Positions 59,852 to 61,219 of a stretch of 64,000 bases of DNA are shown here, piece by piece. The stretch is taken from assembly GCA_964016885.1 (NCBI GenBank), contig OZ024740.1, forward strand, positions 291,834,001 to 291,898,000, read 5' to 3'. A program made the translations under genes and the position numbers. The DNA comes from Eledone cirrhosa (lineage: Eukaryota). A model generated the notes under the pieces. That model ran no database searches. It was not told where the DNA came from and saw only the letters and a program-made list of their open reading frames with translations. The stretch's first letter is position 1. Each line of letters opens with the position of its first letter.

Positions 59852-61219
59852 TTAGAGATTTTTCAACTTTTTGTTAATTATAGTTTTCAAGTCTTGTACT
59901 GTACTACATCTCATGGTAAGAAGACAATTTTCTCGGAATTCATCATTTGTAGATCTACAAACAATGTTTGTAATTGCTTCGCTAACATGTGAAACACTGT
60001 TTTCATTTGTCAACTCATTATTTGAAATATTTTCATGAAAGACAAGATTTGTGCAACTCTGTATTGCCATTCTTATATTTTCTTCATTGGTATCAAAAAC
60101 AGACTCCAAATTGTTATGTAGATGTCCTAGAACATGTAAATCCATCATATATCTTTTATCAGTAATATCAAACATTATATAAATAACAACACGAAACGTT
60201 TGACGTTTTGAAGAATGTCTATCACTTAGTTGAGTAATAAGACATACTTCTGGCTGAAAAGAAGTATTAGTGCTTTCAAAGGAACTATTTACTATTGCTT
60301 TTAGACCATACTTCTCCCATGAAATAAAATCAATAATTACATCTGGAAGTTTTAAGGGTTCTCCACATGGACCAAATGAAAAAAATTCAACGAAATGCTG
60401 TTTTTCTCCTGGGATTTCTTCAGTAAGTGGAAAAACAAAACCAAGACAAGTTAAAGTAAAGACATCTCGGTAAACATTTTCCATGGTAGATATAGTTAAA
60501 GATATTGTGGTACCTGTATAAGTCTTTTTTGAAATATCATCTATCTTATCAGTTTTGCTATCTTGATGAAAATCAATGACTATTTTTTTATCACAAATTT
60601 CAATAATGTTGCTTGCAGGTAAGTCAAGTTCACAGATAATGCCTGCTATTTTTAATTCATATATGAATTCAACTGATGGGTTTAAAATTCTTAATTTTTT
60701 CAGATAATTGTGAATTTTTTTACATTCACTTAACATATGAACGTTACTTTGATAGATTCTCAAATACCAAGTGGATTGATATTGAAGAAATTTGTTGGCA
60801 TTTAGAGTAAATTCCTTTAAATCAGTGGTTTTATTTTGTAGATTTTTAATGAAAAAATAATTCCTTTGTAGAGCTTGGTTGTCATTCAAACACTTTTCAA
60901 TTTGACATAGGTGACTTTTATCTTTAATCAAAGATTGCATTTTTTCCACTACAAATTGTAATGTTGTGAGGAATCCTTCATTAAAATACGAAGAAATATT
61001 TGAAATACTTTTGAGACAAAATAGTTTAATTAGAAATAATTCTTTTTGGAAAGTTATTTCAGTTTCATGAGCATTTATAGCAAGGACAATTGAAGACTTA
61101 TCACTCCCAAATTCTTGCTTTTGTTCTAAAAATATCATACGTATCAATTCTTCTAGTGCTAAATGAATAGGTAGGTCTTCCATTTGACCAGTTTCAGCTG
61201 TTGTCCAGTTCTCAGCCAT
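59852..61219 (-). CDS. TOP6BL: Type 2 DNA topoisomerase 6 subunit B-like (TOPOVIBL / C11orf80 / DUF4554), 455 aa, uninterrupted ORF
   Basis: Collinear matches to recalled human TOP6BL: ECKKIHNYLKKLRILNPSVEFIYELKIAG ~ DCLVIKHFLRKIIMVHPKVRFHFSVKVNG; FGPCGEPL ~ YGPLGLPL; ISWEKYGL ~ VDWKKYHL; QTFRVVIYIMF ~ QTLLLFLFVDF; AITNIVCRSTNDEFRENCL ~ SIMSILTGSTRSSFRKMCL. First ATG at 61219; AATAAA about 25 nt after the stop. Confidence 0.85.
   Translation of the reverse strand: MAENWTTAETGQMEDLPIHLALEELIRMIFLEQKQEFGSDKSSIVLAINAHETEITFQKELFLIKLFCLKSISNISSYFNEGFLTTLQFVVEKMQSLIKDKSHLCQIEKCLNDNQALQRNYFFIKNLQNKTTDLKEFTLNANKFLQYQSTWYLRIYQSNVHMLSECKKIHNYLKKLRILNPSVEFIYELKIAGIICELDLPASNIIEICDKKIVIDFHQDSKTDKIDDISKKTYTGTTISLTISTMENVYRDVFTLTCLGFVFPLTEEIPGEKQHFVEFFSFGPCGEPLKLPDVIIDFISWEKYGLKAIVNSSFESTNTSFQPEVCLITQLSDRHSSKRQTFRVVIYIMFDITDKRYMMDLHVLGHLHNNLESVFDTNEENIRMAIQSCTNLVFHENISNNELTNENSVSHVSEAITNIVCRSTNDEFRENCLLTMRCSTVQDLKTIINKKLKNL

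Follow-up and report, generated by a model that had tools for sequence, protein, structure and literature searches.

The window analysed here (64,000 nucleotides, on C1 of the 3.0-Gb Eledone cirrhosa genome) encodes a TOP6BL (TOPOVIBL) protein whose chain ends on the last helix predicted to contact SPO11, with 0 residues after the element of three C-terminal helices (hereafter called 3H). Judged by its sequence, it belongs to the TOPOVIBL family but lacks the tail, the feature by which the metazoan type is defined. We favour, with a probability of roughly 0.6, the reading that it is the sole TOP6BL of this genome, that it is tail-less and still works with SPO11, and that it does not dock on REC114 by a tail helix of the mouse type. 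In the mouse model, the tail recruits SPO11-TOP6BL to REC114-MEI4-IHO1 assemblies, and with the tail gone the machinery that makes the breaks is probably connected in another way in this animal. How REC114-MEI4-IHO1 activates SPO11 is an open question, in which the TOP6BL tail represents the one solved link in mammals. A survey published in 2022 reported a C-terminal tail domain in all metazoan TOPOVIBL proteins, even the smallest forms (PMC9665070); a full-length animal TOP6BL without tail, beside an intact, altered REC114, would be a clean exception to it, if true. We found no tail-less octopod TOP6BL in the literature retrieved; the alignments in Figs S17-S21 of PMC9665070 may include cephalopods, and Supplementary Fig. 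2c of PMC9671922 may also bear on the novelty of the tail loss.

The coding frame (59852..61219, minus strand) comprises 455 residues followed by TAA and lies in a stop-to-stop frame of 475 codons. Its GC content is 29%, and at this base make-up the chance of 455 stop-free codons is ~4e-18. Translation bore out the intact ORF without coding introns and the IINKKLKNL* C-terminus described in the sequence-only reading, the intron-free status applying to the coding part of the gene. Read contigs across 58962-61351 show no differences from the assembly in 3/3 runs of one sample, possibly the assembly's own, with cover as continuous as expected for DNA. Because the contigs of all three runs agree with the stop, an assembly error at that position is ruled out. 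An AATAAA hexamer, a candidate poly(A) signal, begins 26 nt past the stop (59821..59826, minus strand), essentially where it had been noted, and a second one is found 117 nt past the stop (59735-59730, minus strand). As the hexamer occurs in 4.4% of 35-nt windows of the flanking non-coding DNA, the copy at +26 represents modest evidence only.

The proposed identity of the protein was borne out by both sequence and fold analyses. The Pfam DUF4554 signature (PF15091) matches residues 296-453 above its cut-off (E 7.5e-9, 35.6 bits vs 27). A sequence search among 1.84 billion representatives yielded 12 relatives at E<=0.001, namely the unnamed protein P0002, which shares 62% identity with the window protein (284/455), four named molluscs, an annelid, an amphioxus, a lizard, a mammal and three unnamed ENA records; two of the 12 are named type 2 topoisomerase 6 B-like proteins. 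With an AlphaFold2 model of the window protein (pLDDT 76.6), Foldseek and VIA returned Topo VI-B in all top 10 rows, the best Foldseek E value being 1e-10 and the VIA comparison giving Z 19.8 and an rmsd of 3.7 over 306 aligned residues, vs Z 15.1 for the best other fold. The 306 aligned positions are out of 461 target residues. In TOPOVIBL proteins a linker takes the place of the H2TH domain; in the model, residues 184-264 consist of strands with just two short helices in between. Sequence searches of the PDB, run with the protein or with its alignment, gave nothing useful, and a scan of metagenomes for relatives produced 255 pattern matches, none of which was confirmed. A two-copy complex prediction of residues 13-455, prompted by the idea of a plant-like homodimer and made without alignment, scored 0.00 vs a mark of 0.32 and speaks neither for nor against such a dimer.

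The protein begins with a low-confidence extension of 12 residues harbouring Trp5 (61184..61219, minus strand), also present in P0002 with 4/12 identical positions. It is followed by a GHKL-like domain at approximately residues 13-204 (60608..61183, minus strand), to which isolated GyrB/ParE ATPase domains align. Its ATP boxes (N, G1 and G2) are degenerate and not recognisable, the first helix being devoid of Asn and residues 100-135 of Gly, as in the GHKL-like type defined in Table 1 of PMC9665070. The model and the DUF4554 match assign residues ~205-405 to a linker and transducer domain (60005..60607, minus strand), with a WKxY-like motif, WEKY, at residues 301-304 (60308..60319, minus strand) whose Trp is kept in 10/12 aligned rows. 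The GHKL-like and transducer parts are therefore both retained, as had been proposed. Finally, three helices (residues 406-422, 426-435 and 441-454; 59855..60004, minus strand; pLDDT ~80-90) correspond to the predicted SPO11-binding 3H, an element assigned to this role in section 8 of PMC9665070. By analogy with the family, partnering with SPO11 through 3H is likely, and a role in meiotic breaks would be expected. The protein would thus form the usual 1:1 complex with SPO11 and aid in DNA-end binding, as described for the SPO11-TOP6BL complex (PMC11922746, PMC11347134).

The degenerate GHKL-like domain, the WKxY-like Trp and the three C-terminal helices are all shared with mouse TOPOVIBL/TOP6BL, whose structured part is likewise ~450 residues long (PMC9671922, PMC11347134). 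However, the mouse protein continues with a disordered domain (~452-579) that ends in the REC114-binding helix carrying W562 and W572 (PMC9671922), whereas the window chain stops at the third helix. In the mouse, REC114 binding requires this helix, which also suffices for it; females without the last 17 residues are sterile, whereas males still make breaks, late and in lower numbers near telomeres (PMC9671922). The sterility of these females indicates that a simple, uncompensated loss is costly in the mouse.

We compared tail lengths in an alignment of 14 rows, with one isoform per species, that also served for the tree. P0002 stops at the same alignment column as the window protein, with 0 residues beyond it, as compared with 20 in Anolis, 28 and 30 in P0009 and P0010, 60 and 59 in P0007 and P0022, 139 in Chrysochloris, 140 in Branchiostoma, 207 in Haliotis, 261 in Argopecten, 292 in Saccostrea, 339 in Owenia and 575 in Dreissena. 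Tails of 207-575 residues are thus present in 4/4 named non-cephalopod molluscs, which argues that the absence of a tail is not common to all molluscan orthologs. In most named orthologs, an acidic helix that carries one or two tryptophans closes the long tail. P0007 and P0022, with no species on record, form one clade with the window protein and P0002 (support 98/95 in the core tree, and 81/87 on the 3H region alone), and their tails harbour two Trp spaced ten positions from each other, like W562 and W572 of the mouse. As these nearest tailed relatives carry a short, divergent tail, the sequences suggest a stepwise loss in this lineage, in which the tail would have shrunk from >200 residues to ~60 and then to none. 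Together with the absence of any tail motif in the protein or downstream of it, these comparisons make tail loss in the window TOP6BL very probable.

The main competing explanation for the missing tail is that it resides on a downstream exon, the genomic stop being intronic or ending a short isoform only. Database entries without a tail may arise from faulty annotation: the two Anolis records stop ~20-70 residues past 3H and lack the motif, as do 3/6 annotated Argopecten isoforms, so that motif-less alternative C-termini do occur among annotations. Nevertheless, over the final 240 coding nucleotides none of the 13 GT dinucleotides is a GTAA or GTRAG donor, as compared with donors that begin with GTA in 5/5 cases in REC114 of the same genome, and minor-type donors near TOP6BL are unsupported. 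Approximately 4.5 kb remain for any further exon between the stop and a convergent MRPL36-like frame (54665..55318, plus strand), and no tail-like frame was found in that interval. A tail-motif profile that we built from seven tails ranked the true motif first in 5/7 leave-one-out tests (scores 18.8-25.5); its best score was 4.6 in the interval from the stop to MRPL36, and 12.1 in the rest of the window, read on the minus strand. The profile misses real or likely divergent motifs, as those of Argopecten (rank 81/710), of the mammal (rank 3/763) and of P0022, whose tail scores only 5.4; as the two true motifs that diverge most go unrecognised, an exon with a divergent tail could escape it. We also looked in the 4.5 kb for traces of the tails of five relatives and found none; for each of them, between 20 and 100 out of 100 shuffled sequences score at least as high. 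Considering also the AATAAA at +26, the end of P0002 at the same column and the intron-free organization of the gene over 455 codons, we regard a spliced-on tail as improbable.

To relate the tail-less protein to its potential partners, we searched the same genome for REC114 and SPO11. REC114 is intact, with six coding exons and GT-AG sites, and encodes a protein of 223 aa (C21, minus strand, 1979-7027 of the extracted locus, 5 kb). It shares 151/222 residues (68%) with O. sinensis REC114. Orthologs are present in three Octopus species and in Argonauta. A second REC114 profile match (C6, E 0.5, with an internal stop) was dropped as chance. The MEI4 (PF13971) and IHO1 (PF15771) profiles had no match in the genome, nor in any control.

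We examined the 11 mouse residues that contact the tail, as given in section 7 of PMC9671922, with the mouse numbering checked on R24, V53, K95, V97, R99, C102, L104, M115 and R117. The corresponding residues here are C24, Y53, S95, Y97, C99, G100, F102, L104, R115, R117 and K119, so that 2/11 contacts, L104 and R117, are kept; in O. sinensis REC114 the retained ones are C102 and L104. All 5/5 octopod sequences have an aromatic residue at position 97 and a residue other than Arg at position 99, position 24 is Cys and position 53 Tyr in the 4/4 octopod rows that cover them, and L104 is kept in 5/5. In the mouse, V97 lines the W562 pocket, and R24 and V53 the W572 pocket (PMC9671922). Since the changes at 97, 24 and 53 are located in the tryptophan pockets, they would plausibly fill both of them. 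That REC114 is intact yet retains 2/11 contacts, with Octopus and Argonauta REC114 similarly changed, is to our knowledge of the literature retrieved new. As the comparison spans octopod REC114 rows only (the homolog search returned 3 matches, all octopod or unnamed), it is suggestive only of co-evolution, and we consider remodelling of the binding face in concert with tail loss as a possibility of slightly less than even odds.

It could be instead that the tail is truly gone and that nothing has been rewired, in which case the REC114 differences would reflect ordinary divergence and the tether would be dispensable. The contact positions are identical between this REC114 and that of O. sinensis in 5/11 cases, vs 84/117 for the other PH positions, a difference that is not significant by itself (Fisher p 0.09), and the trend is reversed in the comparison with Argonauta, where contacts are not less conserved (6/8 vs 24/45 elsewhere). 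Mouse and O. sinensis REC114 share only ~35/128 aligned PH positions, by hand count. Male mice devoid of the last 17 residues still make breaks (PMC9671922), and SPO11 cuts alone in vitro (PMC11922746), as expected if the tether were dispensable. Conversely, R99 and R117 are described as well conserved and the binding surface as highly conserved (section 7 of PMC9671922), every octopod row that spans positions R24, R99, V53 or V97 has another residue there, and the sterility of female mice without the tail tip does not fit with a dispensable tether. We therefore deem this explanation unlikely. The suggestion of the sequence-only reading that coupling to REC114 was lost or rewired thus stays a proposal: the genome has an intact REC114, and the changes in its binding face are seen in a comparison of octopod rows only, with a contact variability that reaches p 0.09.

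In the proposal that we prefer, the REC114 PH face for the two tail tryptophans would have been remodelled, with V53 and V97 replaced by aromatic residues and R24 and R99 lost, and REC114 would still scaffold the pre-break machinery through its well-kept C-terminal helices. Its last exon is the best kept, at 79% to O. sinensis, and the C-terminal region of mouse REC114 dimerises and binds MEI4. The SPO11-TOP6BL core might be recruited by REC114 via some other contact, or only through its concentration on the chromosome axis without a tail helix, as in plants, yeast and nematodes. The same REC114 face binds IHO1, via its N-terminus, and ANKRD31, and L104 is central to all three mouse partners (PMC10425845), so that L104, or the face, may be kept for these two. 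A bolder version, that octopods severed the TOP6BL-REC114 tether, the tail vanishing while the PH face filled its pockets and a new contact coupling the full-size B subunit, can be advanced only tentatively. If the tether is severed, these animals would represent a natural, co-evolved counterpart of the mouse tail deletion that sterilises females. A tail-less TOP6BL next to an altered REC114 would provide a test case for pocket co-evolution and for tail replacement, by means of oyster/octopus peptide swaps. The model of O. sinensis REC114 (pLDDT 36.8) was unusable. Just past the PH domain, the linker of the five octopod sequences varies except for a YIAK-x-F stretch that they all have in common; its location roughly matches that of the SPO-11-binding motif of Caenorhabditis DSB-1, which we mention as a lead only.

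Another conceivable arrangement is that REC114 is bound through an aromatic motif relocated to the N-terminus, where the flexible extension of 12 residues, which contains Trp5, would dock on the remodelled PH face. Both the window protein and P0002 carry Trp5, although the segment around it varies and is of low confidence; the extension is shorter and lacks Trp in Haliotis, Argopecten, Saccostrea and Dreissena X1; and the binding of the IHO1 N-terminus to the same face in the mouse (PMC10425845) sets a precedent for N-terminal docking. However, the Trp5 extension is known in two sequences only, and its segment is not among the two best windows of either protein under the tail profile, which makes this relocation quite improbable.

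SPO11 exons are present on C1, including an open tandem-Tyr exon. The last exon ends without C-terminal extension, which rules out an extension of the nematode type, and thus the nematode route of an SPO-11 tail is not used here. A Toprim match on C2 was dropped because of its five stops. Four SPO11 exons, in the right order and on the right strand, are spread over ~757 kb (C1:58122821-58879797), with gaps of ~490 and ~230 kb inside the Toprim domain, in contrast with REC114, which is contained within 5 kb. This spread reflects either giant introns or a feature of the assembly.

Several known systems resemble the preferred reading, that of a sole, tail-less TOP6BL working with SPO11, in part. 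The minimal TOPOVIBL proteins of Schmidtea and Pristionchus are also strongly truncated with 3H kept (section 8 of PMC9665070), but they have lost the GHKL-like domain and kept the tail helix, the reverse of the window protein. Arabidopsis MTOPVIB and yeast Rec102/Rec104 are, like the window protein, B-like subunits without the metazoan tail motif; the surface of the REC114-partner PH domain is different in yeast, and Arabidopsis REC114 is dispensable for breaks (PMC9671922, PMC11347134). In plants and yeast the motif is absent kingdom-wide, whereas here the loss took place within molluscs, a phylum in which other classes carry the tail. In Caenorhabditis, as is likely here, the TOP6BL-REC114 link is gone while REC114-type PH domains remain; however, these nematodes lost TOP6BL outright and some gained an SPO-11 C-terminal extension (bioRxiv 10.64898/2026.07.30.741518), neither of which is found here.

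The TOP6BL locus is the sole match at E below 1 in 4/4 genome searches, performed with the window protein (P0001), P0022, PF15091 and P0006. Thus, no second, intron-containing paralog was detected, within the sensitivity of exon-by-exon searches, which can miss short divergent exons. A match of P0022 on C5 (E 6.9) was dropped as chance. No annotated Octopus TOP6BL protein was present among the protein search results, though REC114 is annotated in three Octopus species; the TOP6BL gene may be missing from Octopus annotations, and the window supplies a core meiotic gene where searches found none. It could also be that the frame is a dead or dying processed copy and that a working multi-exon TOP6BL was missed, for which the limited sensitivity to short divergent exons and the lack of an annotated Octopus protein speak. 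Yet the 455 codons are open in two lineages at 62% identity (284/455), near the 68% of REC114, and WEKY, the GP motif and 3H are kept. Moreover, a parent gene would be much closer than P0002, and none matched. We consequently hold this explanation to be very improbable.

The mouse TOP6BL gene is multi-exon, and bivalve TOP6BL isoforms differ in blocks at residues ~19, 58, 527 and 694, which implies splice junctions in the bivalve genes as well. Retroposition of the window gene is plausible from its structure. The idea of a retroposed replacement gene is thus upheld as regards the lack of coding introns and of a parent copy, but not by scars, which erode in old copies: there is no A-run of >=8 in the 2.5 kb downstream of TOP6BL, and instead of a flanking target-site duplication we found a repeated 13-mer upstream only. 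The introns would have been lost through a cDNA, with retrogene replacement somewhat favoured over loss in place (~60:40). The unnamed ENA records P0009, P0010 and P0024 (436-446 aa) match DUF4554 and have a tail of only 28-30 residues with a single Trp at its end; they are apparently further one-frame, short-tailed TOP6BL of another animal lineage. As these proteins look one-frame, intron loss alone is probably not unique to the window TOP6BL. That P0007 begins with M where P0022 has V suggests that a prokaryotic gene caller is behind these ENA records. A parallel is provided by the replacement of amphioxus SYCP1 by a retrogene (PMC5803294), a meiotic gene that is likewise in a single coding exon, with no multi-exon copy found, and that also has a head-to-head neighbour and a candidate shared promoter. 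Transcripts, promoter sharing and relocation have been demonstrated for SYCP1 (PMC5803294), whereas the window TOP6BL is known from genomic sequence. The SYCP1 profile PF05483 had no match in the genome, nor in any control.

The previously noted neighbours, MRPL36 and SEC31, were corroborated by a Ribosomal_L36 match in the MRPL36-like frame and, beyond it, by one exon matching Sec31A (E 3e-12). On the other side, an exon of 520 codons of a C2H2 zinc-finger gene lies head-to-head with TOP6BL, ~7.7 kb upstream (~68.9-70.4 kb in window numbering, plus strand). A CpG-richer stretch at 61301..62800 (observed/expected 0.7-1.3, vs mostly 0.1-0.6 around it) is a candidate promoter, possibly shared by TOP6BL and the zinc-finger gene. 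The 13-nt motif upstream of TOP6BL is pyrimidine-rich and present in three copies on the minus strand (61225..61423; starts 61423, 61272 and 61245), the last of which runs into an acceptor-like AG 5 nt ahead of the ATG. As there is no donor-like site within 3 kb upstream, a 5' UTR intron in that span is unsupported. Elsewhere, tandem arrays of short units at 1717-2868, 12107-13156 and ~63650-63840 (15-nt, 27-nt and ~20-nt units, respectively, by eye) yield long spurious open frames. Frame fragments at 14397-15422, 17258-19515 and 48668-49300, mostly within the SEC31 region, are putative pieces of LINE reverse transcriptases, to judge from their appearance.
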